Of a stretch of DNA of 64,000 bases, positions 1,732 to 17,455 are shown piece by piece. The notes beneath the pieces are model-generated. The model saw only the letters and a program-made list of their open reading frames with translations, had not been told where the DNA came from and did not search any database. The DNA comes from Nitrospirota bacterium (GTDB lineage: Bacteria; Nitrospirota; Thermodesulfovibrionia; Thermodesulfovibrionales; Dissulfurispiraceae), in the NCBI GenBank assembly GCA_963710375.1, contig CAVPZX010000002.1:1008326-1072325 (forward strand). Reading direction: 5' to 3'. The position numbers and the translations under genes were made by a program. How positions within the stretch are numbered: the first letter of the stretch is position 1; each line of letters begins with the position of its first letter.

Positions 1732-2379
1732 GTGTCGGTAAGAAGAATAACAAACGGCGGCAGGAAGGTGATTGGGAAATTCCCGAGTCTTAAGATGGGG
1801 AGGGCCGTATGGTGGGAGTCGCAGCTTGAGCGAGATTATATTTATTATTTGGAGGTGGACCGAGACATTGTTTCGTACAAAGAGCAGCCTCTGAAGATCC
1901 GCTATCTGCTGGATAGGAAAATTCACCACTATACACCGGACTTCCTGGTCTGGCGGACAGACAAACAACAAATAGTCGAGGTGAAGGATGAGGAAAGCGC
2001 CGGCAAGGAAGAGTACAGGCATTTGTTCCATATTGTTGCCCCGCTTTTCATGGAGGAAGGATATGAATTTGTGGTAGTGACTGAGAAGACAATTCGTCTC
2101 AGGCCTCTTCTGGATAATTTAAAACTGCTGCACAAATATTCCAGAACAATAATTTCGCATAAGCACCAGATTGACGCGTATGCTTTTTTCTCAAGCGACG
2201 AAGACGGTACGCTGGGAAAGTTGGCGTCCTTCCTCAGAGCCAAGGGATCAGGCGCTGAAATAGCCTATGCCCTAATTTATTGGGGTGTCATTGCGGTCAA
2301 CCTTGCAAATCCTATTAATTCACAAAGCCAGGTGAGCCTGGCGGATGCATCGATGTTAACAAAGGAGAAGTGCGCGTGA
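1732..2379 (+). CDS. tnsA: TnsA-like endonuclease
   Basis: GKFPSLK...WESQLERD...EQP...YTPDFLV...VEVK motifs of the TnsA PD-(D/E)xK nuclease; AGGAGG upstream. Confidence 0.9.
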   Translation: MSVRRITNGGRKVIGKFPSLKMGRAVWWESQLERDYIYYLEVDRDIVSYKEQPLKIRYLLDRKIHHYTPDFLVWRTDKQQIVEVKDEESAGKEEYRHLFHIVAPLFMEEGYEFVVVTEKTIRLRPLLDNLKLLHKYSRTIISHKHQIDAYAFFSSDEDGTLGKLASFLRAKGSGAEIAYALIYWGVIAVNLANPINSQSQVSLADASMLTKEKCA

Positions 2380-4349
2380 AAAATCACAGATTTGGGAAAG
2401 GGCAGAGGATTGCCATGGGAGGGCGTGAGTACATAATAGAAAGACGACTTCCTAACGGCGATCTTCAATTAAAAGACATTGTAACCAACACATATATGGC
2501 AAAAGCGGCGGGGGAGCTTGTTAATGCTTTATTTAATGGCAATTTGGCCATGGTCGCCGATGAGCAACTCATTCCGTATGTCAGAAAAAATAGTGCTCGC
2601 GTGCTTAATGCGGATTTCACCCAATTGCCCGAGAGCGACAGAGAGAAGGCTAAACGGAAATACGCCTACGTCATGGAAATAATTAAGCGGGGCCTGGACA
2701 GGATCACAAAGCAATCTGTCGAGCCGGTTGTTAGTGAAGTAAGCAAAGAACTTAATGATTGTGCACCCCCCTCGTGGATTCAAGTCTACCGGTGGCACAG
2801 GGATTTCATCATATCGGGGGAAAACATTCGTTCCCTCGCACCTCTGACAAAGGCAAGAGGAAACCATAAGATACGACTGTCGGAAGAAGTCACGGCTATA
2901 ATCGAAACCATAATCAATGAAAAATACCTTGATACGCAAAGGGCCTCTGTTCTATCGACTTATGATACGGTGATAGCCAGAATAGCTCATGAAAACCAGC
3001 TAAGGCCAAAAGACGACCAGATAACAAAACCGAGCCAGATGGTTCTTTATCGAGCTGTTGCCAAACTCGATCCCTATGAGGAGATGAAAGCGAGATATGG
3101 CAAAGCAGCAGCCGACTTGAAGTTCAACCCCGTCAAGCAAGGCATACGCCCTACCCGGGCGCTGGAGCGGGTGGAAATTGACCATACGAAGTTGGACCTC
3201 TTTGTTATAGACACTGAAAGGAAAATGCCCATTGGGCGGCCGTGGCTCACTACCGCAATTGACGTTTATACAAAGTGTATAGCCGGCATGTATGTCAGCT
3301 TTAATCCGCCTTCTTATCTGTCGGTTATGCAGTGCATGCGCCATGCGATAACACCCAAAGCATACGTTAAGCAGCGGTACCCGGAGATTCGGCATGAATG
3401 GGGTGCCTACGGCAAAATGGAAAGTGTCGTGGTTGATAACGGGAAGGAGTTCCACAGCACACATTTTGAAGACGCATGCCTCCAGCTTGGGATTGTCCTT
3501 CAGTACGCGCCGATCAAACTTGCTTGGTACAAACCGAGCATCGAGAGATATTTCGGTACATTGAACACCAGATTGCTTCACCAACAGCCTGGCACGTCTT
3601 TCTCGAACATCGTTGATAAGGGAGATTATGACCCCAGGGAAAACGCAATTATCGACTTCAATACCCTCATGTCAGTGCTGCATAAATGGATTGTGGATGT
3701 TTACCATTACGATGAACATAGAGGCATACATGATATCCCGGCGCTTAGATGGGAAAAAGCGATAGAGGAATTCCCGCCGGCCCTCCCTTCCTGCAGGGAA
3801 GAACTTGATGTCATGCTCGGCATGATTGAAAAAAGGGTAATCTCCAAATCCGGGATCGAGCTCCACGGCCTTTTTTATAACGACGAGAGCCTTGCCCTGT
3901 TGCGCCGCAGGAGGAAAGAAGAGGGGAAGGTGACGGTCAAGTTCGATCCTGGCGACCTTTCGATGATCCATGTTTTCGATGAAGACAGCAATACTTTTAT
4001 TCCTGTGCCGGCTCAGGCTGTCACATATAGTGAAGGCCTGACCCTCTGGCAACACAATGTAATCAGGAGATATACCCGCAATTATATCGATGAGAACTGC
4101 GATATAATCTCCCTGGCCCTTGCAAAAGAAGAGATTCAGAGGATGGTCGAGAATGCATGGAACAGCAGCAAAAAAAACGGGACTCGCCAAAAGGCGGCGC
4201 GCTGGCTGAATCTTTCTCAAGAAAATCAGCTTGAGACCTCATTACAGGCGGATGCCTTCGGGGGGTCGGCAAGGTTACCGCTGACAAAGCCGGTTCGACG
4301 GGCTTGTTATGCCGGCAGCGAGCGTGCATCCGCTAAACCGCATATCTGA
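2376..4349 (+). CDS. tnsB: TnsB DDE transposase (Mu/Tn7 family); C-terminal tail probably continues in 4309-4629 after a frameshift
   Basis: VEIDHT, GRPWLTTAIDVYT, VVDNGKEF and KPSIERYF give the DDE triad; GTG at 2376 overlaps the tnsA stop and follows AGGAG. Confidence 0.92.
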   Translation: MKNHRFGKGQRIAMGGREYIIERRLPNGDLQLKDIVTNTYMAKAAGELVNALFNGNLAMVADEQLIPYVRKNSARVLNADFTQLPESDREKAKRKYAYVMEIIKRGLDRITKQSVEPVVSEVSKELNDCAPPSWIQVYRWHRDFIISGENIRSLAPLTKARGNHKIRLSEEVTAIIETIINEKYLDTQRASVLSTYDTVIARIAHENQLRPKDDQITKPSQMVLYRAVAKLDPYEEMKARYGKAAADLKFNPVKQGIRPTRALERVEIDHTKLDLFVIDTERKMPIGRPWLTTAIDVYTKCIAGMYVSFNPPSYLSVMQCMRHAITPKAYVKQRYPEIRHEWGAYGKMESVVVDNGKEFHSTHFEDACLQLGIVLQYAPIKLAWYKPSIERYFGTLNTRLLHQQPGTSFSNIVDKGDYDPRENAIIDFNTLMSVLHKWIVDVYHYDEHRGIHDIPALRWEKAIEEFPPALPSCREELDVMLGMIEKRVISKSGIELHGLFYNDESLALLRRRRKEEGKVTVKFDPGDLSMIHVFDEDSNTFIPVPAQAVTYSEGLTLWQHNVIRRYTRNYIDENCDIISLALAKEEIQRMVENAWNSSKKNGTRQKAARWLNLSQENQLETSLQADAFGGSARLPLTKPVRRACYAGSERASAKPHI

Positions 4350-4629
4350 TGTGGGAACAGCCATTTGTTGCGACAATTCTGAAGACTCGAGAGAAGCAGA
4401 AGAAGGCATCGTGATAACGAAGGAACCGATCAGAAAGAAAATGGGCGCTTTAAAAAAGGGAGCGGGAAGGCCGAAGAAAGAATTATCTGTTGTTAATGGT
4501 GCCGCAAAGAAGGCGGGCGACCAAAGAATTAAAGGCACTTCATCCTTTGCCGCAACCTCGATTAATGTTGAAGAGCACAGCGATTTGTCAGAATGGGATT
4601 ACAGTTACGCCATGCCCGGGAGGGCATAA
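4309..4629 (+). pseudogene. Probable frameshifted C-terminal tail of TnsB
   Basis: Low-complexity charged ORF ending DLSEWDYSYAMP, 3 bp before tnsC; +1 frame open from 4285. Confidence 0.5.
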
Positions 4630-4632
4630 GTA

Positions 4633-5694
4633 ATGACGCAGGGAAACGCTTTGAAAGTTGAGGATGTTTGCGGGATGGGAAAGCCCCTGGAGGTTAAGAA
4701 AGATTTTGGTGCTATGACAATGAAAGAGAGGGTCAACCTCATAGAGCATATTTTTATTTCTCACCCCCAGCTTAAGAATATTGTGAAGAAAATAGATGAA
4801 TGCCATCAGGACTCCAAGGTATCAATTGAGCCCAAATGCCTTTTCATAACCGGGAGGCCCGGCTGCGGCAAAACGACGATCGCAAGGTTTTATGAAAGCC
4901 GTTATCCGCGCAGGGCTACGGTTGGAGGTGCGGAGATTCCCGTGCTCTCCTCGACAATTTTCTCACCGGCAACAGTGAAAGGGATGGCGACGGGCCTGCT
5001 TTATAGTTTGGGCGACCCCATTGCGGATAAGGGAACAATAACCAGCCAAACAATCAGGTTATACAAAATGATCAAAGACTGCAAAACGGAGGTAATTGTT
5101 CTCGATGAATTCCAGCATCTTATTGATAAGGATTCGAACAAGGTCCTTCAAGTCGCTGCAGATTGGTTGAAGAATCTTCTAAACAACACCGCTGTCCCCA
5201 TGGTGTTGATCGGCATGCCGTCATCGGTAAAGATACTCGACGCGAACGAGCAACTGAGGCGACGTTTCCTGAACAGGATGTGCCTCAACCCGTTTGGATG
5301 GAATACGCCTCGGGAACAAAGGGATTTCATCACATTGTTGAAGTTCATAGAAAAGGCATTGCCGCTCAAAGAGATATCGGGACTCTATTCTTACGAGACA
5401 GCTTTCCGGCTTTATTGCGCATCGCGGGGAGTCATTTCCAACCTCATGAAGATTGTGCGCAAGGCTGCAATATTAGCGATCAGAAAAGGCCAGGAAAGAA
5501 TATCTCATGACTTGCTTATCGTGGCTTATGAAGATGAGATGGAGGAGAGTAGTGTTGCAGCAGACAACCCGTTTCTGCTTGATGTCGATAAGCTAACGGC
5601 GCCGCTCCTTGAGCAGAATGACGAGAAAGGACTTGGAAAAAGCGTCCGCGGGAGGACAGGCGTAAAACTCGCTGACGTGTTAAGCACAAGGTAG
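4633..5694 (+). CDS. tnsC: TnsC/TniB AAA+ ATPase
   Basis: Walker A GRPGCGKT, Walker B IVLDEFQHL, WLKNLLN, QLRRRF arginine finger. Confidence 0.92.
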   Translation: MTQGNALKVEDVCGMGKPLEVKKDFGAMTMKERVNLIEHIFISHPQLKNIVKKIDECHQDSKVSIEPKCLFITGRPGCGKTTIARFYESRYPRRATVGGAEIPVLSSTIFSPATVKGMATGLLYSLGDPIADKGTITSQTIRLYKMIKDCKTEVIVLDEFQHLIDKDSNKVLQVAADWLKNLLNNTAVPMVLIGMPSSVKILDANEQLRRRFLNRMCLNPFGWNTPREQRDFITLLKFIEKALPLKEISGLYSYETAFRLYCASRGVISNLMKIVRKAAILAIRKGQERISHDLLIVAYEDEMEESSVAADNPFLLDVDKLTAPLLEQNDEKGLGKSVRGRTGVKLADVLSTR

Positions 5695-5708: not shown

Positions 5709-7616
5709 ATGAGTGGAAAAATTACATTGCTCAGAATACTTAGGCCTCATAACGATGAGAGTTTCCCGGGTTTTCTTTTAAGGCTTGCGGAGGCGAACGG
5801 GTATGAGAGGTTTTCCTGGATATTGCAGATGGCTGGAATAACACACCCGGTAAATTATTTGCCGGATCCGGACCCATTAAAGGACAGGATAGATTTAAGC
5901 GAGCTTTCTAATATAACTAATGTCAGCGCGGAAGATCTGGGGTCGTTACTTTTCGAGCGACATGATGGGGGCAGACACTTCAAGCAGTTCGAGATTTTTG
6001 GGCAGGCGGTTCCCCGGTATATGGTGAGGTTTTCGAGGACAAAAGTTTGCCCAGCATGTCTGAAAGAGGCTAACTATAGCCGTAAAATATGGGACCTTGC
6101 GCCGGTGACTGTGTGCCCCATTCATAAATGTTTTCTTTATGACGTATGCCCGAATTGCTTGAGTCCCATTACATGGAACCGGGCTCATGTGAGTATCTGT
6201 AACTGCACGTACGATTTCCGGGAGGCTCCGCTGTTAAAAGTTAGAGAAGAGAATTTATCATTGGCAAAGTATATTTATTACCTATGTGGCATGCCGCTGC
6301 CCGGTGAGATCGTTCAAAGCGATAATCCTTTATATGCTCTGGATCTGCAGCATCTGCTGCTTGCCGTCTTTTTTATAGCGGGGCAACTCCACGGCTTTAC
6401 GGAGACAACGGGCAAATTCTCCGCGCCCTCTTCCCGAAATATAGTTCTTCTACATTCACTTGCCGAAGCATTCCAGGTTTTTGAAAATTGGCCCCATAAC
6501 TTCAACGCGTTCCTTGTAGGCTTGAGGGACCGGTATAACGTTTATGAAGGATCGACAGGGCTTAATGCGGATTTCGGGTAGTTTTACGAGTATATTTATA
6601 AGAATTTCGCCTCTTCAAAATTTCAGTTTATTAGGAGCGCATATGAAAAGTACTTGAGCGAACAATGGGATGGGGGATATCTATCGGCGAAATGTAAGTT
6701 CCTGACCAGGCGAGGCATTAGCCACAAGAAATTTGTCACTAGAATAAAAGCTCAGGAGATACTGCATGTTAAGGAAAAGGAAATTGATCGACTGCTTAAA
6801 ACTGGGGAGTTGTTTGGCATTACGAAAAAAATGAAATCCAGAACGATGTATTTGATCGACGTCAATAGCGTCAAAAGAGTAAGAGAGGCAAATAAAGAAC
6901 ATATGCGCCTCAAAGAAGTAGTGGGTTTCCTGGGAATAGGAGAAAAGACAATAATGGAGTTGGGCCGAGCAAAAATATTATGCATATATAACCGGGAGGT
7001 AAATAATTCCCTATGCTGGACTTTTAAGCGCACGGATGTCATATCCCTAATGCAAAAATTTGAGGAACTTGCAGAGGGAAATGAAAGCTGCTCGCTGAAA
7101 CGAATAACTTTTTCTACCTGTTTGAGAAAGCTTTCCGGCGGCAAAGTGGGATTAATAGAGTTGGTGAAGGCTGTTCTGGCTGGGGATACCCGCCCCTGCG
7201 GGAAAGGCCCGGGAAGAGGATTGCGCAGTTACCTTTTTTATGACAAGGACATTAATGAATTAGTGAGGGCTAATAGAGAAAAAAATAGGGGTAATCTGTA
7301 TTCCGTTACGGAAGCGTCGGAAATGCTTGGCCTCAAGGAGGAAGTTGTCTATTTTTTGACAAAGAAGGGAATTATTCCGGTCGAGAGGGTAACTAATGGG
7401 CAGAAAACGGCGGTTTTTGTGACCAAGGAATCAATTAGTAACTTTGAAGACACATACACAACCTTGTCTTCACTTGCCAAGGATAATTATACGTCTCCCA
7501 AACGCCTTGCACTCGCGCTAATGGATAAAGGGATATCGCCTGTCTCGGGCCCCCTGATTGACAGTGGAAGACAATACATATTTAAGAGAACTGATCTCCA
7601 ACGGTATGCTGCGTAA
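5709..7616 (+). pseudogene. tniQ: TniQ/TnsD-like target selector (~635 codons) interrupted by in-frame TAG at 6579-6581
   Basis: N-terminal DESFPGFLLRLAEANG and Zn ligands CPAC...W...CPIH...CPNC...C-C. ORFs 5709-6581 and 6654-7616 are in the same frame with one stop between them (ADFG*FYEYIYKNF...). C-terminal part has repeated HTH-like segments. Confidence 0.8.
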
Positions 7617-8347: not shown

Positions 8348-8869
8348 ATGAGGGTAGCTCCCGGGAGAAAAAAAGCTTTACCTGTGGATATGGACGAATC
8401 TCAGTTAAATCGCCTCAGAAGTTATGCATGGAACTACTTTGCTTATCATGCAGAGCAGAGAATTAAGACTTTTAACTTTTATATTATTCTTGTAGCAGTA
8501 ATCATCGGCGGCTGCGGAACAGCTCTATCTAATATAAATAAAGAATACTTTAGATTGCTTCTTTCTCTTCTCGGGTTCCTTCTCACAATTATTTCAGTCG
8601 CGTTCGCTTTCCTCGATCGAAGAAATAAGGAATTAGTTCGAAATGGTGAAGCTGCATTAAGGTACCTTGACGAATTCGAAGAACTACCAAGCGAAGGATC
8701 TGCGCCGCATGTTTTACAATTATTTTCAAGGGATGATCATATCTGTTCGAATAAGCCGAAAGGTCTATCCATCAGGGCTCATATTTCTTACTCCCACGTA
8801 TTTAGGAGTATTTTTCTTGTTTTTGGCGTGATAGGCCTGATTATAGGCATAGCGTGTTTGATATATTGA
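8348..8869 (+). CDS. Three-TM membrane protein (transposon cargo)
   Basis: AWNYFAYHAEQRIKTFNFY followed by two hydrophobic helices and a C-terminal TM helix. Confidence 0.7.
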   Translation: MRVAPGRKKALPVDMDESQLNRLRSYAWNYFAYHAEQRIKTFNFYIILVAVIIGGCGTALSNINKEYFRLLLSLLGFLLTIISVAFAFLDRRNKELVRNGEAALRYLDEFEELPSEGSAPHVLQLFSRDDHICSNKPKGLSIRAHISYSHVFRSIFLVFGVIGLIIGIACLIY

Positions 8870-9018: not shown

Positions 9019-10035
9019 ATGACCCCCAAACCTCTTCGTATAGGCAATGCGGCACATAGGTTTAAGACATATGTAACGCCAGATTATGTATCAATTTCAG
9101 ATGGAGAAATAGCTCATTTTGAGACTTTTCTACGATTCCTTTACGAAAAGTATTTAGAGGGAAGTGTATTGCTTACCTACAGAGGAGAAGATTTTAGAAA
9201 TATTACGCGTAGATTAACCAACATCACAGTCCCCGATATAGAAATTTACAATCGAGCTTTCTATTTTGGCGATAAAGCAAGGCACTACCAATCGGATGTT
9301 TTTAATCCTGATAGCAGGAATTTTCTTACGGGTATAAATGACTCATCTGAGTCAACCATTGCGTATATTTTTAGCCGCATAAATAATGTTGTTACGTCAG
9401 AAAGCAATCTGAGAAGATTGGTATCTCAGAAATTTAGTAAGTTTTTCTCAAAAAATGATAATAAAGAACAATTTGTTTTGGCTATAAATCGCTGTGATAG
9501 CGAGGAAGAGAAGGTTAAGTTACGTGATTACTACCTTTATTTCTTGCATACTGCCGGGTCAAAAGGTATAAGAAAAGAGGCGTTCTTTGTTTCAACATCC
9601 TCAAGTAAGGTTGTTGCACGCGGCTTCGCCCGAAATCGCAAACTAATTTTTCATTATTATATTCCTCAACCGTATTATTGTCATGCTGTTGCACCTTGGA
9701 TTATTGAAGAACATCAACATATAGTAAATAAGCGGAAGCTGCCTATCTATCAACCTTTCGGACTTTTCGCTAACCAGACAGAAGTAGCAGTTAAAGGGGC
9801 TTTGTTTCCTCAATTCTTATATGGTATCGAATTGGTTGAGGGTAATCAATTGATGGTGAATCCTCATATTCTTTCCTTGAGAAAGAATCAGTTCAAGGAA
9901 GCTATAAAAACTGGCGTGACAATTGATCAGAGTGATTTTCATAATAAAATATTTCAAACTGGTTTTATTCGTTGGGTTCAAGCAGACGAAAACGGCCATT
10001 ACGAGCAGCATGACCTCTGTCATCACATGATATAG
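9019..10035 (+). CDS. Putative R-S-E clade ADP-ribosyltransferase-like protein
   Basis: TYRG, FVSTSSSKVVARGFA and NQTEV appear in the order expected for the R / STS / QxE motifs; AT-rich. Confidence 0.55.
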   Translation: MTPKPLRIGNAAHRFKTYVTPDYVSISDGEIAHFETFLRFLYEKYLEGSVLLTYRGEDFRNITRRLTNITVPDIEIYNRAFYFGDKARHYQSDVFNPDSRNFLTGINDSSESTIAYIFSRINNVVTSESNLRRLVSQKFSKFFSKNDNKEQFVLAINRCDSEEEKVKLRDYYLYFLHTAGSKGIRKEAFFVSTSSSKVVARGFARNRKLIFHYYIPQPYYCHAVAPWIIEEHQHIVNKRKLPIYQPFGLFANQTEVAVKGALFPQFLYGIELVEGNQLMVNPHILSLRKNQFKEAIKTGVTIDQSDFHNKIFQTGFIRWVQADENGHYEQHDLCHHMI

Positions 10036-10937: not shown

Positions 10938-13574
10938 TTAGAGTAAACTCTTAGCGCACCGGAAACCAGCATTCCCGCAAAGGTAGCCAGGGAGGTACGA
11001 GTTGATGCTGGCGCATCGGCAGTAAGCGGATCCATCGGCCCAAGAACCGCCATGAAGCGCTTGCCTGTCCTCGGTCCACTCCCACATGTTACCGGCCATG
11101 TCGTAGCAGCTGTAAGGACTTACGCCGTTAGAATACTTATTGACGGGTGTTGTTTTTCCAAGACCCGACTCTGTAGTGTTGCACCTCTTCCGATCGAATT
11201 GATTGCCCCAGGGATAGACCCGTCCGTCAATGCCTCTAGCAGCCTTTTCCCACTCCTCCTTGGTTGGTAGACGCTTGTCAGCCCATTCAGCATAGGCACG
11301 GGCACCATGCCAGAAGACAAAAATCACTGGGTGCTTCTCAAAGCCTGACTTGACCACAAACCGCTTTTTATTAAAACGAATGTGACAATGTTCCCCCGCG
11401 TAGATCCCTTTCAGGTCTATCCATTGTTCTTTTTCTACAGCGGTGCAACCCATGGCATTCAAAAAATCGGTGAATTCAGCATTCGTCACAGGGTATTTAT
11501 CTATGAAAAAACTCTCCTTGATGTTGGAAATTCGAATATTATCATCCGCGCCTATTATGAACTGGCCTGATGGAACGAAGACCATATCGGACGGTTCCTC
11601 AATCCCAACCGTTGGTTCAATATATTCATAAACAGAGGGCGTTATCATGTAGGACACAAAGAGGGCGATCTCATTAGTGATATTTTTTTTCCGTGCCATA
11701 TTCTTTGGTATTTCCTTTGCTATCTTGCATGCGACAAAATATTCTATAAATGATCGATGAGCGAAGGCATAGTACCCCTCCGCATCATTGCGTTGGAGAA
11801 AGGTAGAATTTCGTATCTGATAGTCCAGATTATCGAGCGACAGCCTCAATGTATCCTTAACAGGCGCATCGAAAAACCTATTAATGGCCTCCAGCAGGGT
11901 ATTAAAATGTAGCTTATACTTTTCTCTTGTGAACATATAAAAGGCAAGCTCCTCCATAAAGAGCATGATGCCTTTGGGCAGCTTTGCTTCTGACCGCTTC
12001 TGTTCACGTTGTTCCCATGCCTCTGTAATTACTTGGTATAGCCTTCCTGAGGTTATCGTTCCTTTTGCGTTTCTGATTGCCTCGATATCTTTGACGATCA
12101 TCTCGATCAGTATGGGACGGCTTGCGAGATCCTTCATATCGAAGACTTTTGTTAAGGTATTTCTCCAAAACTGCTCTGCCTCTTTTTCTCCGAGGCAAAG
12201 ACTCAAATAGGTTTTTATTTGGGAATCGGCGAATGGGCATATATAGACCCTTTCAAAACGGGGTCTTTGGAACCCGCTCGGCCCTGCTTGAGCGCCCTGT
12301 ACGAGAGCAAGGTGATCTTTTTCTTCATAAACACTTCTAAAAAATTGCGTCCTGCTCGTCAGGATCACTTTGTGATATGGCGCGGCAATCATGGACAGGT
12401 TCTCGATTTCCCTGAGAACCGTTTTCTTGTCGAACGTTACCGATAATTCATCAAAACCGTCTAGGATGAGGATTATCTCACCCTCTTTCCCCTTGGTTCT
12501 GGCATCAATCTCGGCTTGGGCAGCCTCCTGCCAGCCTCTTGTCCGGACTTGGCTGAGGCTCGCGATAACAGGGATGTATTTCGGTCCTTCAAGATCAGAG
12601 GCGAGTTTGTAGCAGAATGACGTTTTGCCGATGCCATAGTCGCCGAGCACTGCCAGGAGCTTCCGATTCGGGTCCTTCAGCCATTCATGGGTATACGTGT
12701 GCAGCAACTTCGTACTCTTTTGCTTGATGTCTTCAGCATGGCAGAACGGTTCAATGTAATGCTTTGGCACATATTCGCAATACTTTCTTTGCTCACTTGG
12801 CGGCGGAGGCGCCTCTAAGGGAGGATCCAAGACAATTATTGTTCTCGGGAAGCCGCATGCTGATAGCCATTTATTAACGGGTTTAAGAATCCGGTTTGTT
12901 TTCTTCTCCTCTTCTTCTAAGCGTTCACCTATTATCGAATTACCCTTCCAGTGCCATATGACTATCCCTTGGTTAATCTCAACTGACGTGATATGCTCCC
13001 TGATCCCGCCCTGATCCATCCGGATATAAGCCTGATCCATCTCATCGGCAAGCCGTAATAATGCAGTTATGCGAATAAGGTTGATGGGTTCCTGACAAAG
13101 CTGTTCGTCAGCGAAATTCTCGGGGAGGTCGGCAATAGGGCAAATGTCCTCAGTGGAATGTCCAAAACAGACATTAGCGACGGCTTCAGCAATTGGCGGT
13201 ATCATCTTCGTGCGATGATGCGGACGAAATGGCCCGAAGAAGTATTTATCTGGATCATTTAAAATATATTTCCTAGATCGCAGGGAATGATCTTTGGGGT
13301 CAATGCGGTCGCTTTCGTCGCGATAGCCGATATCGTGCAGATAGACGGCATAGAGCAGGATGAAAATCTCAACTGGATTGAGACCTCGTTTGAAAGCCTC
13401 GGGGATAAGCTGATCGAGTTTGACTTCCAACCTTTTGGAATGATCGATCCCATTCTTGTCGATGCCGTCAAGCCATTCAGAAGCATTTTTTTTCACCTTT
13501 TCGATATGTTCGTGAAGGTTGACTCCCCCATCGCAAGTTGTTTTCCCCAACAGCAGTTCATGCAATGCGCCCAT
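10938..13574 (-). CDS. HD-domain / NACHT NTPase / formylglycine-generating-enzyme (FGE, C-type lectin fold) protein
   Basis: HD: DHS...YLHDIG...LLRLADEMD. NACHT: GDYGIGKT, LILDGFDE, ILTSR, FAHRSFIEYF. FGE: YPVTNAEF, RLPT.EEWEKAARG, YDMAGNMWEW, GFRC. Start placed at ATG 13574 after a GGAG RBS. Confidence 0.85.
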   Translation of the reverse strand: MGALHELLLGKTTCDGGVNLHEHIEKVKKNASEWLDGIDKNGIDHSKRLEVKLDQLIPEAFKRGLNPVEIFILLYAVYLHDIGYRDESDRIDPKDHSLRSRKYILNDPDKYFFGPFRPHHRTKMIPPIAEAVANVCFGHSTEDICPIADLPENFADEQLCQEPINLIRITALLRLADEMDQAYIRMDQGGIREHITSVEINQGIVIWHWKGNSIIGERLEEEEKKTNRILKPVNKWLSACGFPRTIIVLDPPLEAPPPPSEQRKYCEYVPKHYIEPFCHAEDIKQKSTKLLHTYTHEWLKDPNRKLLAVLGDYGIGKTSFCYKLASDLEGPKYIPVIASLSQVRTRGWQEAAQAEIDARTKGKEGEIILILDGFDELSVTFDKKTVLREIENLSMIAAPYHKVILTSRTQFFRSVYEEKDHLALVQGAQAGPSGFQRPRFERVYICPFADSQIKTYLSLCLGEKEAEQFWRNTLTKVFDMKDLASRPILIEMIVKDIEAIRNAKGTITSGRLYQVITEAWEQREQKRSEAKLPKGIMLFMEELAFYMFTREKYKLHFNTLLEAINRFFDAPVKDTLRLSLDNLDYQIRNSTFLQRNDAEGYYAFAHRSFIEYFVACKIAKEIPKNMARKKNITNEIALFVSYMITPSVYEYIEPTVGIEEPSDMVFVPSGQFIIGADDNIRISNIKESFFIDKYPVTNAEFTDFLNAMGCTAVEKEQWIDLKGIYAGEHCHIRFNKKRFVVKSGFEKHPVIFVFWHGARAYAEWADKRLPTKEEWEKAARGIDGRVYPWGNQFDRKRCNTTESGLGKTTPVNKYSNGVSPYSCYDMAGNMWEWTEDRQALHGGSWADGSAYCRCASINSYLPGYLCGNAGFRCAKSLL

Positions 13575-13873: not shown

Positions 13874-14005
13874 TTTCATTTTTTGCGCAAAATCTTCCGG
13901 AATTTTTCACTTTATGTGCAAAATATTTTCATTTTATAAGATAATAGGTTTTGTAACTTATTGAAATTACATCGGGGCAACTTTCACTTTTTGAGAAAAC
14001 CTATA
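13874..14005. repeat. Tn7-like transposon end: four TnsB-site-like repeats plus an IHF-like site
   Basis: TTTCAYTTTWT-N repeats at 13874, 13905, 13927 and 13982; TAACTTATTGAAA at 13954-13966; terminus AACCTATA. Confidence 0.75.
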
Positions 14006-14015
14006 GCATGCTTGT

Positions 14016-14082
14016 TGTGGGTTGACGCATAAACTGCAATTCCTGACTCATAAGTTGCAGTAAATTGACGCATAAGCTGCAA
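14016..14082. repeat. Mini-transposon end with three closely spaced TnsB-site-like repeats
   Basis: TGTGGG, then TTGACGCATAAACTGCAA (14022), CTGACTCATAAGTTGCAG (14043), TTGACGCATAAGCTGCAA (14065). Confidence 0.75.
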
Positions 14083-14701
14083 TAAGCTTTTGTTGAACGT
14101 GTGCAGAAAAAAGTAGATGTTGTGACTGAACACCAGATAATGGTACTAGCACACTAACTAGGGTGGCAGGATAAAAGCCAGAAGCTGTAAAAAAAGAGAG
14201 GCTCCACGTCTTCCCTCGTACCTTGCACTATTCGTTTGTTTGGTACACCCTAATCCGCTTTGTTCAAATTGTTGCAGCAGTGAAGATTTTCGAGAGAAGT
14301 CCACAGACCGGGCCAGAATAAGCAACGGGGATACTCATTAGTGAAAAATTAAACAGGTTTATCCCCCGTTTGCATGAATTTGTTGTACGCCATCTTGCCA
14401 TAATGCTGTCAAGTTCAAATAGTAGAAGGTAGTGTCTCAGTTTGATTTTTTGTATAATATAGTTCAGGAGGTGATGTCTTTGAAAGCAATTTTGATGTAA
14501 CGCCTGAAGCTCCTTAATAACGCAAAAGTATTTATGTATTTATGATACGAAGGGGAGCGCCACCGACAGGGCTGTTGGGATTGCCAACTTAGATGCTCAC
14601 TCATCTAAAATGTTTGAGGGTGGTTATTGCAATGGTATGTCATTTTATCAGACGGGAACGGGTGCGTAGAGTGAGTAAGCGCCCGGCTTCTACTTTTTTT
14701 C

Positions 14702-14779: not shown

Positions 14780-15445
14780 ATGATACTAACAGACAAGCTC
14801 ATAAAAGATGTATGTAGTAAAGGGGATATCAAGATTGTGCCATTTGAGGATTGTCAAATTGAACCCGCCTCATATGATTTGCGAGTAGGGAAACACGGTG
14901 CTACGACAAGTACAAAAAAAATTGTTGACATAGAAAAGCAAGGATACATGCTGATTGAACCGGGGGATTTTGCTATTGTCGGTGTTTTGGAAGAGATTAC
15001 TCTTGGATCAAAATATGCGGGACGTATAGGCTTGCGCTCAAAATTTGCCCGAAAGGGATTAATAGCAACAGCAGGGTCGCAAGTTGATCCGGGCTATCAC
15101 GGTCGTCTTAAAATTGGACTTACCAACTTGACACCTAAAGCAATATCTTTGCCGTTTAAGGATGATTTTATAACATTAGAGATTCATGAACTTACAGAAC
15201 CGGCGTTAAAACCATATGATGGTCCCTATCAAGATCAATTAGATTTAAGTCCAGCGGATATAGAAGCAGTTACCGAAGGGAGCGGAATGGCACTTTCAGA
15301 AATGATGGTGACATTAAGCTCTCTGAGTCAAAACGTGGGAAGGTTAAGCACGGATTTTGAAGTATTCCAAAAAACGCTTAAAATAGTTGGCGGAATCCTA
15401 AGTTTACTTATTGCCATAGCAACCATTATTGTTGCTTTAAAATAA
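14780..15445 (+). CDS. dcd: dCTP deaminase (trimeric dUTPase fold) with C-terminal helical extension and TM helix
   Basis: QIEPASYDLRVG, RSKFARKGL, VDPGYHG.L.I.LTN, PYDGPYQ.Q; hydrophobic tail IVGGILSLLIAIATIIVALK. Confidence 0.8.
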   Translation: MILTDKLIKDVCSKGDIKIVPFEDCQIEPASYDLRVGKHGATTSTKKIVDIEKQGYMLIEPGDFAIVGVLEEITLGSKYAGRIGLRSKFARKGLIATAGSQVDPGYHGRLKIGLTNLTPKAISLPFKDDFITLEIHELTEPALKPYDGPYQDQLDLSPADIEAVTEGSGMALSEMMVTLSSLSQNVGRLSTDFEVFQKTLKIVGGILSLLIAIATIIVALK

Positions 15446-15576
15446 ACTTGTCTTAAAACAACAATAGAATTTCCTCAAAGTCCCAAGCATGATGGACCTG
15501 CCCCCAAAAAACTGTGCCAGCGATAATTTGAGTTTTCTGGCAAAATTAACTACCCAAAGAAAGGGAGGATTTTGCC

Positions 15577-15843
15577 ATGAAGAAGTCGAAGTATACGGAA
15601 GAACAGATTGCTTTTGCGTTGAAGCAAGCAGAGACTGGTACACCGATAGCCGAAGTGATCCGGAAACTTGGGATCAGTGAGCAGACCTTTTACAACTGGA
15701 AAAAGAAGTATGGCGGACTGGGCCCCAGTGAGCTAAGGAGGCTGAAGCAACTGGAAGAGGAGAACCGGACGCTCAAGCAGATGATTGCAGACCTGAGCTT
15801 AGATAAGCACATGCTGCAGGAGGTACTCAGAAAAAAATTCTAA
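15577..15843 (+). CDS. IS3 transposase OrfA
   Basis: MKKSKYTEEQI...GISEQTFYNWKKKYGG...LKQLEEEN..LK; A7 slippery run just before the stop. Confidence 0.92.
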   Translation: MKKSKYTEEQIAFALKQAETGTPIAEVIRKLGISEQTFYNWKKKYGGLGPSELRRLKQLEEENRTLKQMIADLSLDKHMLQEVLRKKF

Positions 15844-16672
15844 GGCCTGACCGAAAGCGTAAACTGGTGAAATATCTCCAGGAAAGTTTCAGGGTCAGTG
15901 AGCGGAGGGCATGCAAGGCATTAGCTTTTGGCCGTACCACTCACCGATACCGGAGCAAACTAAAGGGCAGGCCGAACTCATCATGAGGATCAAAGAGCTT
16001 GCTGCTGTTAGAGTGCGTTATGGATACCGTAGAATCCACGTGCTTTTAAGACGAGAGGGGTGGAAAGTAAACCATAAGCGGGTGCATCGTCTATATCTGC
16101 TGGAGGGGCTGAATCTCAGGACGAAGAGGCCTAAGCGGAAGCGCCCTGCAATGGTAAGAATTCTCCGAGAGCCAGCAGTAACAGTGAATACGTGTTGGAG
16201 CATGGACTTCGTTTCTGATAGCCTATTCAATGGCCGGCGGTTCAGATCATTAACTGTAGTCGATAATTTTAGTCGGGAGTGCTTAGCGATCGAGGTGGAT
16301 CAGGGCATCAAAGGGGAGCAGGTAGTAGCGGTGATGAATCGCTTGAAATACATCAGGGGAGTACCCAAGAGCATACGGGTTGACAACGGCCCGGAGTTCG
16401 TCTCGAAAGCATTAGATCAGTGGGCGTATGAAAACGGGGTTACGCTGGATTTCTCGCGGCCTGGAAAGCCCGTGGATAATGCCTTTGTCGAGTCCTTCAA
16501 TGGAAGCTTCCGGGACGAGTGTCTGAATGTGAACTGGTTTCTCTCGATAGAAGATGCTAAGATGAAGATCGAGACATGGCGGAAGGAGTATAACGAGTTC
16601 CGTCCCCATAGTTCTCTGGACGATATGACGCCCAGTGATTTTGCCAAAGCGGAGGCCGCAGCGGCGGCTTAA
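15836..16672 (+). pseudogene. IS3 transposase OrfB (DDE) with an additional frameshift near 15960
   Basis: WSMDFVSD, VDNGPEF, ESFNGSFRDECLN. The -1 frame (...VSERRACKAL...RYRSK) does not join the GQAELIMRI frame without one extra base. Confidence 0.8.
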
Positions 16673-16728
16673 AAAGGCCGGAAAACTCAACATTACGGTG
16701 GACCACTTTTCGGGGTACAGTCAAACTT

Positions 16729-17031
16729 ATGAGCATTCAAACAACTGGTTGGTCCAACAAGGGGGGGACCTCTGACAGAGCGTGCGCCTGTGGAACGTGG
16801 AAGCAACACTGGATAAATTTTTCTAAGAAAACATGGCCCGCAAGTTGCTCAGTTGAAAAATGTTCCAATACGCCTACCATAGGTGGTCACGTCATTAATC
16901 CGAGTGTGGACGGAGAGCGGATTGTTCCTATGTGCGACTCATGTAATAAGCTCAGCGGTACTTTCACATTGAAGGGTGGCGTTACTCTTCCAAGCGCTAA
17001 CCAATCACAAACCTGCGCGAAAAAGGTATAA
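16729..17031 (+). CDS. Small Cys-rich protein with HNH-like motif; probable gene cassette
   Basis: CACG.W..HW, C...C, GGHV, IVPMCDSCN; stop codon lies inside an attC-like R'' box. Confidence 0.6.
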   Translation: MSIQTTGWSNKGGTSDRACACGTWKQHWINFSKKTWPASCSVEKCSNTPTIGGHVINPSVDGERIVPMCDSCNKLSGTFTLKGGVTLPSANQSQTCAKKV

Positions 17032-17323: not shown

Positions 17324-17455
17324 TTTCATTTTATACGTTAATTTTTCAGGATATTTTCACTTTATGCGTTAAAGCTATTTCATCTTATACGTTAAATTCC
17401 TCCATAACTGATTGAAATTTGGTCGCCTTAATTTCATTTTATGTGTTAACCTACA
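17324..17455. repeat. Mini-transposon end: four TnsB-site-like repeats plus an IHF-like site
   Basis: TTTCAYYTTATRYGTTAA at 17324, 17355, 17378 and 17432; TAACTGATTGAAA at 17405-17417; terminus AACCTACA. Confidence 0.8.

Follow-up and report, generated by a model that had tools for sequence, protein, structure and literature searches.

Bacterial proteins that join an N-terminal effector to a STAND or NACHT module and a C-terminal FGS domain have been predicted to form an immune class, with a diversity-generating retroelement (DGR) lying adjacent to the gene or elsewhere (Kaur et al. 2021, PMC8195603). DGR diversification in nature has been described by Dore et al. 2024 (PMC10907252), and FGS has been presented as an 'antigen receptor'-type sensor of bacterial NACHT proteins that is said to be diversified by DGRs (Kibby et al., 10.1101/2022.07.19.500537); FGE-like sensors are also named among defence STANDs in a 2026 survey (PMC13581612). 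In the phosphoesterase-NACHT protein DS-8 (DefensePredictor), both domains are required for phage defence (PMC13092281), and the carriage of defence cargo on Tn7-like transposons is established (PMC8649781). Here we describe an HD-CE/NACHT/FGS gene (10938..13574, minus strand) found in a Tn7-like element on contig CAVPZX010000002.1 of GCA_963710375.1, a Nitrospirota assembly of the Dissulfurispiraceae; the 64,000-nt stretch of this contig that was analysed is referred to as the window. The product of 878 amino acids (P0001) is probably a single-chain, NLR-like immune receptor that senses an invader and responds through an HD effector, a reading to which we give a probability of about 0.68. The architecture, the residues and the DGR history of the family were observed directly, and the immune reading is supported because the HD and Walker residues are invariant, the fold matches those of NLRs, effectors are swapped among relatives, the sensor tips are written by DGRs and the co-cargo looks defence-like.

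Domain architecture of the 878-residue protein

The gene is real and intact, with one stop-free frame supported by Pfam matches and by alignment, and it encodes an effector-NACHT-sensor protein. Its open frame extends to 13790, beyond the ATG at 13574, and since relatives align from query residue 4, position 13574 is the likely start; a ribosome-binding-like motif, AAGGGAG, is located 5 nt 5' of this ATG, and a promoter scan gave fewer sites than were seen in shuffles. The first-pass annotation of this DNA had proposed a tripartite effector-NACHT-sensor layout with intact motifs, and that layout is borne out by the Pfam HD-CE and FGE domains, the NACHT motifs and the NLR fold matches; according to Pfam and the related proteins, N-terminal effector and C-terminal sensor are joined in one chain. 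Where it had looked to Pfam for confirmation, the two terminal domains score above their cut-offs, whereas the NACHT model (residues 307-414) stays below, at 22.8 versus 26.7 bits.

The HD-CE effector domain (residues 1-255; 12810..13574, minus strand) matches PF24391 over residues 42-210 with 62 bits (cut-off 27) and carries the complete series of H...HD...H...H...D residues. These residues, H45, H80, D81, H96, H139 and D177, are unchanged in 65/65 aligned sequences; among 17 HD-CE proteins of greater divergence, H45, H80, H139 and D177 are always kept, and D81 and H96 are kept in 15. HD-CE was reportedly defined as a conflict effector by Nicastro et al. in 2023. In a model built from the 65-sequence alignment, residues 1-250 are confident, the NTPase is moderate and the last 130 residues are poor. 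With VIA-align, the closest structure to the N-terminal domain is a PPX/GppA HD domain (Z 13.3, which for a helical domain is little above background; root mean square deviation 4.2 over 186 residues), followed by phosphodiesterases that act on cyclic nucleotides and by alarmone hydrolases. Modelling of the HD domain from its single sequence gave an unusable result, with a predicted local distance difference test score (pLDDT) of 43, and an Atlas search returned HD-CE clusters only, at 0.88, which can serve as a lead only. The HD domain is predicted to be a nucleotide-cleaving enzyme, a nucleotide being its presumed substrate.

The central NACHT-type STAND module (about residues 275-625; 11700..12752, minus strand) contains the motifs GDYGIGKT (12621-12644), LDGFDE, TSR and FAHRSFIE, each of them invariant or present in 64/65 sequences, which we take to be Walker A, Walker B with a second acidic residue, sensor-1 and the winged-helix motif, respectively. 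Residues K317, T318, D372, D375 and E376 are unchanged in all 65 aligned sequences, and the top Foldseek matches are NACHT modules of the animal NLRs NLRC4, NLRP3, NLRP2 and NOD2 (E ~1e-4, obtained with the moderate-confidence model). A plasmid search yielded 16 records that match the NACHT region only, at 22-28% identity, and are annotated as NACHT, and a precomputed PF05729 assignment is attached to many of the homologues. Because the Pfam NACHT match is below cut-off, the NACHT call rests on the motifs, on Foldseek and on the NACHT-annotated plasmid matches; other STAND-related Pfam models over residues ~305-425 also fall below their cut-offs, with the exception of a short NPHP3_N match, and in NCBIfam the 878-residue protein has sub-threshold matches only, including one to DS-8 over residues 280-627.

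The C-terminal FGE-type C-lectin domain (FGS, or CLec; residues 662-875; 10950..11591, minus strand) matches FGE-sulfatase (PF03781) over its whole length with 144 bits (cut-off 23.3), and a search with the family profile also brings up 2y3c, a DGR variable protein of Treponema (E 2.9e-8). A C-terminal FGE-type sensor had been recognized in the first pass, which overlooked that its tip is a DGR variable region. Database labels of relatives name FGE-, SUMF1-, EgtB- or PvdO-type enzymes, and the FGS domain is similar in sequence to solved FGE structures, so that a formylglycine-generating or SUMF1/EgtB/PvdO-type enzyme might be suspected. A pair of cysteines is catalytic in the formylglycine-generating enzyme. 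In the present family, however, residues 847 and 852, which align with these cysteines, are variable or Ala, neither position being kept as Cys; the FGE cysteine motif falls in the segment that here forms the hypervariable tip, and for that reason the FGS domain is no FGE enzyme. The scores against the NCBIfam EgtB, SenA and PvdO models are also far under their cut-offs. The enzymatic explanation is already largely refuted, and we regard it as extremely improbable.

The DGR-written sensor tip

A homologue search returned 149 proteins, and among the 120 matches listed at least 69 are full length with all three domains and share 49-57% identity with the 878-residue protein. Where named, their sources are mostly Deltaproteobacteria-type metagenome assemblies, and the median identity among the homologues is ~69%. 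The FGS domain is well conserved apart from 14 hypervariable columns between residues 846 and 869, and 66 distinct tips are found in the 69 full-length homologues. The residues K, E, Q, M and W account for 12/959 residues in these columns versus 1604/4122 (39%) in 60 other variable columns, a scarcity that would be expected of AAC codons mutating at adenines only.

Long matches to the gene were found at 24 loci, in which 91 of the 153 neighbouring open reading frames (ORFs) were scanned with Pfam, presumed repeats being left out. One of these loci, L077, holds a complete DGR in cis, in the order target, avd (PF22296), reverse transcriptase (RT; PF00078) and template, the template being contained in the 3'-terminal part of the RT frame (L077:4649-4772). 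Its target differs from the template at 19/31 template adenines and at 0/62 other bases. When 16 other tips were compared with this template (excluding four loci without a motif-matched tip, two of different length and one duplicate), differences were seen at 283/496 adenine positions (57%) and at 119/992 others (12%), while the coding DNA just upstream of the same tips differs by 17% at adenines and at others alike. The tip of this family is diversified by a DGR.

Homology to avd lies 3' of the gene in ten of the 24 loci, intact and accompanied by RT in L077 and shortened, with several end points, in nine. The junction shared by cassette-less genes was considered as the mark of one ancient loss, an explanation that was rejected, as the same junction also follows a second target in L001; such a junction may arise independently, because repeated excision between the repeats of two targets would yield it. 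The second, tandem target of L001 is a calcineurin-NACHT-FGS gene that has the same kind of tip (L001:7224-10634). The start of a calcineurin-NACHT-FGS second target was also noticed downstream in L072, and the second DGR-type target behind the HD gene in L005 (L005:5404-7008) is a KAP-NTPase-FGS gene. In L094 (4689 region), the tip is internally shortened and most of the RT and the template are deleted.

The question of whether a DGR may also act from a distance is raised by L065 and L069, whose tips differ at 15 positions, 13 of them at template adenines, with four differences in ~1 kb upstream and no cassette nearby. As these genes are 94% identical overall, recombination between strains explains the pattern as well as a DGR acting in trans. 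All five of the five genomes with relatives carry some RT, the best of which shares 35% identity with that of L077, and the template search in genomes with relatives gave target-type matches only; no trans-acting partner was thus found, both searches having been made in fragmented assemblies.

In the window copy, the DGR-type variable region (residues 842-872; 10959..11051, minus strand), for which no template was found in the assembly, differs from the L077 template at 22/31 adenines and 24/62 other bases (Fisher p 0.004), a weaker form of the signature seen in L077. The background just upstream, window copy versus L077, is 40% at adenines and 35% at others; the non-adenine changes in the tip are therefore read as ordinary divergence, and the adenine excess as a DGR trace. 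Eleven of the 13 AAC-derived codons of this tip still end in C or T. The protein is a long-branch member of the family (0.66, the median being 0.11, in a quickly built tree that gave long-branch warnings and is used for branch length only). In the window genome, which is 98.76% complete, there was no RVT_1 match, no tblastn match with the L077 RT and Avd and no template-like sequence or repeat, and the bAvd matches were sub-threshold four-helix ones only; a hairpin-like motif that lies 3' of relatives' genes is absent at the window copy and was not found in the genome.

The window copy is probably a variant that lost its retroelement and whose specificity is now fixed. It might still be diversified by a trans-acting DGR missed by the assembly, as the near-identical L065 and L069, with tip differences mostly at template adenines and no cis cassette, would point to remote or very recent diversification within the family. 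On the other hand, the near-complete genome contains neither an RVT_1 match nor template-like sequence, the hairpin-like motif is missing 3' of the gene, and the tip is invariant in the contigs from four soil runs, which belong to two studies and one of which may be the source, although contigs drop rare variants. We find such continued diversification very unlikely.

The effectors found on related chassis and the genes around them bear on what the receptor does. Among 31 profile-search hits chosen for spanning the NTPase, FGS-ended chassis carry SIR2 (9), Mrr (2), caspase (1) or HD-CE (2), and HD-CE is also fused to NACHT or nSTAND proteins that have no FGS. An earlier expectation that homologues would be found in defence contexts half fails: Tns genes occur in 0/24 relatives' loci, many of them on short contigs, while an NMT1-type ABC transporter lies beside 11 of the 24 and glnD beside eight of those 11. 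Residence in a Tn7-like element is not characteristic of the family, and of 47 pattern matches to relatives in viral contigs none was confirmed. The many loci adjoining the ABC transporter and glnD, together with structural neighbours such as PPX/GppA HD domains, phosphodiesterases, HD-GYP and RelH/Mesh1, would suit a ligand-gated, non-killing switch, in which the role of the HD domain is turnover of a second messenger (cyclic nucleotide or alarmone) or polyphosphate binding. However, these housekeeping neighbours represent one shared locus rather than independent cases, SIR2, Mrr and caspase effectors are swapped onto the same NACHT-FGS chassis, and DGR hypermutation of the tip suits an evolving foreign ligand over a fixed metabolite, all of which makes the switch an unlikely alternative to an immune receptor.

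The Tn7-like element and its cargo

The gene begins 431 bp inside one end of a Tn7-like element and reads inward, in agreement with the first-pass placement next to a transposon end. The element carries, on the plus strand, tnsA (1732..2379, PF08722), tnsB (2370..4629, PF09299), tnsC (4633..5694, PF05621) and a tniQ/tnsD-like gene (5709..7616, PF06527), together with inverted ends that hold repeated, transposase-binding-like sites. The end nearest the gene, right end A (13874..14005, plus strand), contains four binding-site repeats and is followed by GCATGCT; its inverted partner is a left end outside the window, which starts at window position -6393 (G000 C2:1001932), 12 nt after the gyrB stop, and GCATGCT also stands before that left end. 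A second, different left-end-like repeat cluster (14016..14085, plus strand) and right end B (17324..17455, plus strand; four repeats, ending in ACA and followed by CATGCT) lie farther out, so that ends of two repeat types are stacked at 14005-14016 and 17455. The flanking repeats are of 7 bp for the left end and right end A and of 6 bp for the left end and right end B, not of 5 bp. An 18-bp motif recurs at 1319-1336, 13950-13967 and 17401-17418, that is, upstream of tnsA and in both right ends. The C-terminal ~100 codons of tnsB are in another frame, apparently through a frameshift, and tniQ is interrupted by a stop codon in frame at 6579-6581; given these lesions, the element probably cannot move on its own.

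A search of 40 related genomes, of which 24 belong to the same family, brought up no full-length homologue, a result that fits a horizontal arrival of the gene. In five genomes of the same genus (L143-L147), the DNA after gyrB is different in each, two have similar end repeats, and there is no clean empty site. L145 has another left-end-like cluster after gyrB, with repeats similar to those at 14016..14085, and L143 has a 24-bp remnant of fused ends at this place. The 3' end of gyrB (G000 C2:1001920-1001932, window -6405 to -6393) appears to be a hot spot of insertion in the genus; no published gyrB insertion site turned up in a limited literature search. The transposon, now damaged, is likely to have delivered the gene to the gyrB site.

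It could be argued that the gene is itself a relic, an intact-looking receptor without a cognate ligand that is carried passively by a dead transposon. The apparently frameshifted tnsB and the interrupted tniQ would agree with this, as would the genome without detected RT, template or hairpin, the long branch of the protein and the alteration of its tip at non-adenine positions. Yet all 878 codons are open and all catalytic residues are kept despite a 35-40% DNA difference from L077 upstream of the tip, which argues for purifying selection since its lineage parted from the main family, and we judge the relic explanation improbable.

The general link between Tn7-like elements and defence cargo that was drawn on in the first pass agrees with the left arm, which carries a three-gene module of PRTase-CE, ORC-CDC6-like and CARF6-like genes (L128:5817-9656; window -6009 to -2167), a candidate defence system, as well as a type II methyltransferase. 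The segment from the inner left end to right end B contains a dCTP deaminase-like gene whose product has a hydrophobic tail at its C-terminus (14780-15445); this could be a nucleotide-depleting defence gene. The remaining cargo includes an 8xMP membrane-protein gene (8348-8869), a low-GC ORF of 338 amino acids without a Pfam, NCBIfam or PADLOC match (9019-10035), an IS3-family element with 44-bp imperfect inverted repeats in the outer transposon segment (15498-16720), and a Cys/His-rich ORF of 100 amino acids without a family match that adjoins right end B (16729-17031).

The retroelement and the transposon may be parts of one history. In this tentative scenario, which we regard as possible rather than probable, DGR-written receptors become locked through repeated loss of avd, RT and template, and a locked, selected variant reaches an unrelated host on a Tn7-like element, as a ready-made immune gene of fixed specificity, here with a nucleotide-destroying HD-CE effector. 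If true, this would mean that an adaptive type of bacterial immunity is passed on horizontally.

Proposed immune function and comparison with known systems

Binding, oligomerisation, the substrate and protection are proposed from analogues, with the tested bNACHT, Avs and DS-8 proteins as models for binding, oligomerisation and nucleotide depletion. By this analogy, the FGS tip would bind a foreign (invader) molecule, the NACHT module would then oligomerise, and the clustered HD domains would hydrolyse the cellular nucleotide pool, arresting the infected cell in the manner of abortive infection. As a first guess, the ligand may be a phage protein and the substrate (d)NTPs.

Several points weigh against an immune receptor of this kind. 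The function of the 878-residue protein is read from sequence, and CLec-STAND proteins have not been experimentally characterised according to Dore et al. 2024 (PMC10907252). PADLOC, which the first-pass annotation had named as a check, gave no match for this protein or for its homologues P0008 and P0044. The CLec fold is assigned from sequence, residues 750-878 of the alignment model having a pLDDT <50. Relatives are found mostly amid housekeeping genes and not in defence islands, and L077 alone among the 24 loci has a complete DGR. Since the neighbours of the HD domain are PPX/GppA proteins, phosphodiesterases and alarmone hydrolases, the substrate may just as well belong to signalling as to toxicity. 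Finally, the window tip may have drifted, because it departs from the family at the normally conserved residues 852, 857 and 865.

The idea of DGR-diversified STAND-CLec proteins as bacterial antigen receptors has been published and is still at the prediction stage in the literature covered. The present family offers a compact test case, in which one gene of 880 codons with its own enzymatic read-out comes with 66 natural tips on a ~70%-identical scaffold and with a known template, and it would supply a first substrate of an HD-CE effector. Should the window gene be merely another orphaned target, one effector is added to the known list.

An NLR-like defence candidate had been proposed in the first pass; the layout is supported, and effector-STAND-FGS proteins have been published already as a predicted immune class (PMC8195603, 10.1101/2022.07.19.500537, PMC10907252). 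The profile match above cut-off and the full HD motif place the N-terminal domain with the HD-CE conflict effector (PF24391). No HD version of a STAND-FGS protein was found in the literature searched; Nicastro et al. 2023, the published version of Kibby et al. and the bioRxiv supplements lie outside that literature and may list it. The terms 'HD+NACHT', 'HD+STAND' and 'HD-CE' are absent from the Kaur supplement files searched, as against 323 NACHT+FGS matches (PMC8195603), HD terms are likewise absent from the Dore supplement files searched (PMC10907252), and HD is not among the bNACHT effectors in the text of Kibby et al. covered, which does not include the supplementary table (10.1101/2022.07.19.500537).

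As to the transposon, published Tn7-like elements likewise have TnsA, TnsB, TnsC and TniQ, ends of the TGT...ACA type with repeated binding sites, defence-like cargo and an IS3 element inside, whereas the insertion directly after gyrB, the stacked end types, the flanking repeats of 6-7 bp and the damaged tnsB and tniQ set the present one apart (PMC8649781). DS-8 is alike in combining a phosphoesterase and a NACHT module in a single protein, and its profile matches weakly over the NACHT module, but its effector is calcineurin-like, not HD-CE, and the 36.8 bits scored by the window protein fall far short of the DS-8 cut-off of 790 (PMC13092281). The bNACHT proteins share the effector-NACHT-sensor layout (10.1101/2022.07.19.500537). 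The 'putative antigen sensors' of Dore clade 5D, likened here by architecture and not by RT placement, are likewise NACHT proteins with a variable region of the CLec type; their two tandem targets per locus are seen here in L001, and their remote targets and activity in trans may have counterparts in the present family; unlike them, the window protein has an HD-CE effector and no detectable DGR (PMC10907252). The STAND-FGS systems of Kaur et al. likewise combine an N-terminal effector, a STAND or NACHT module and a C-terminal FGS domain and are predicted to sense invaders; the effectors named for them are, in place of HD-CE, domains of the TIR, DRHyd, calcineurin, caspase, trypsin, kinase, FHA or adaptor type (PMC8195603). 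The layout is thus a known one, and HD-CE is an effector variant of this published, predicted class.

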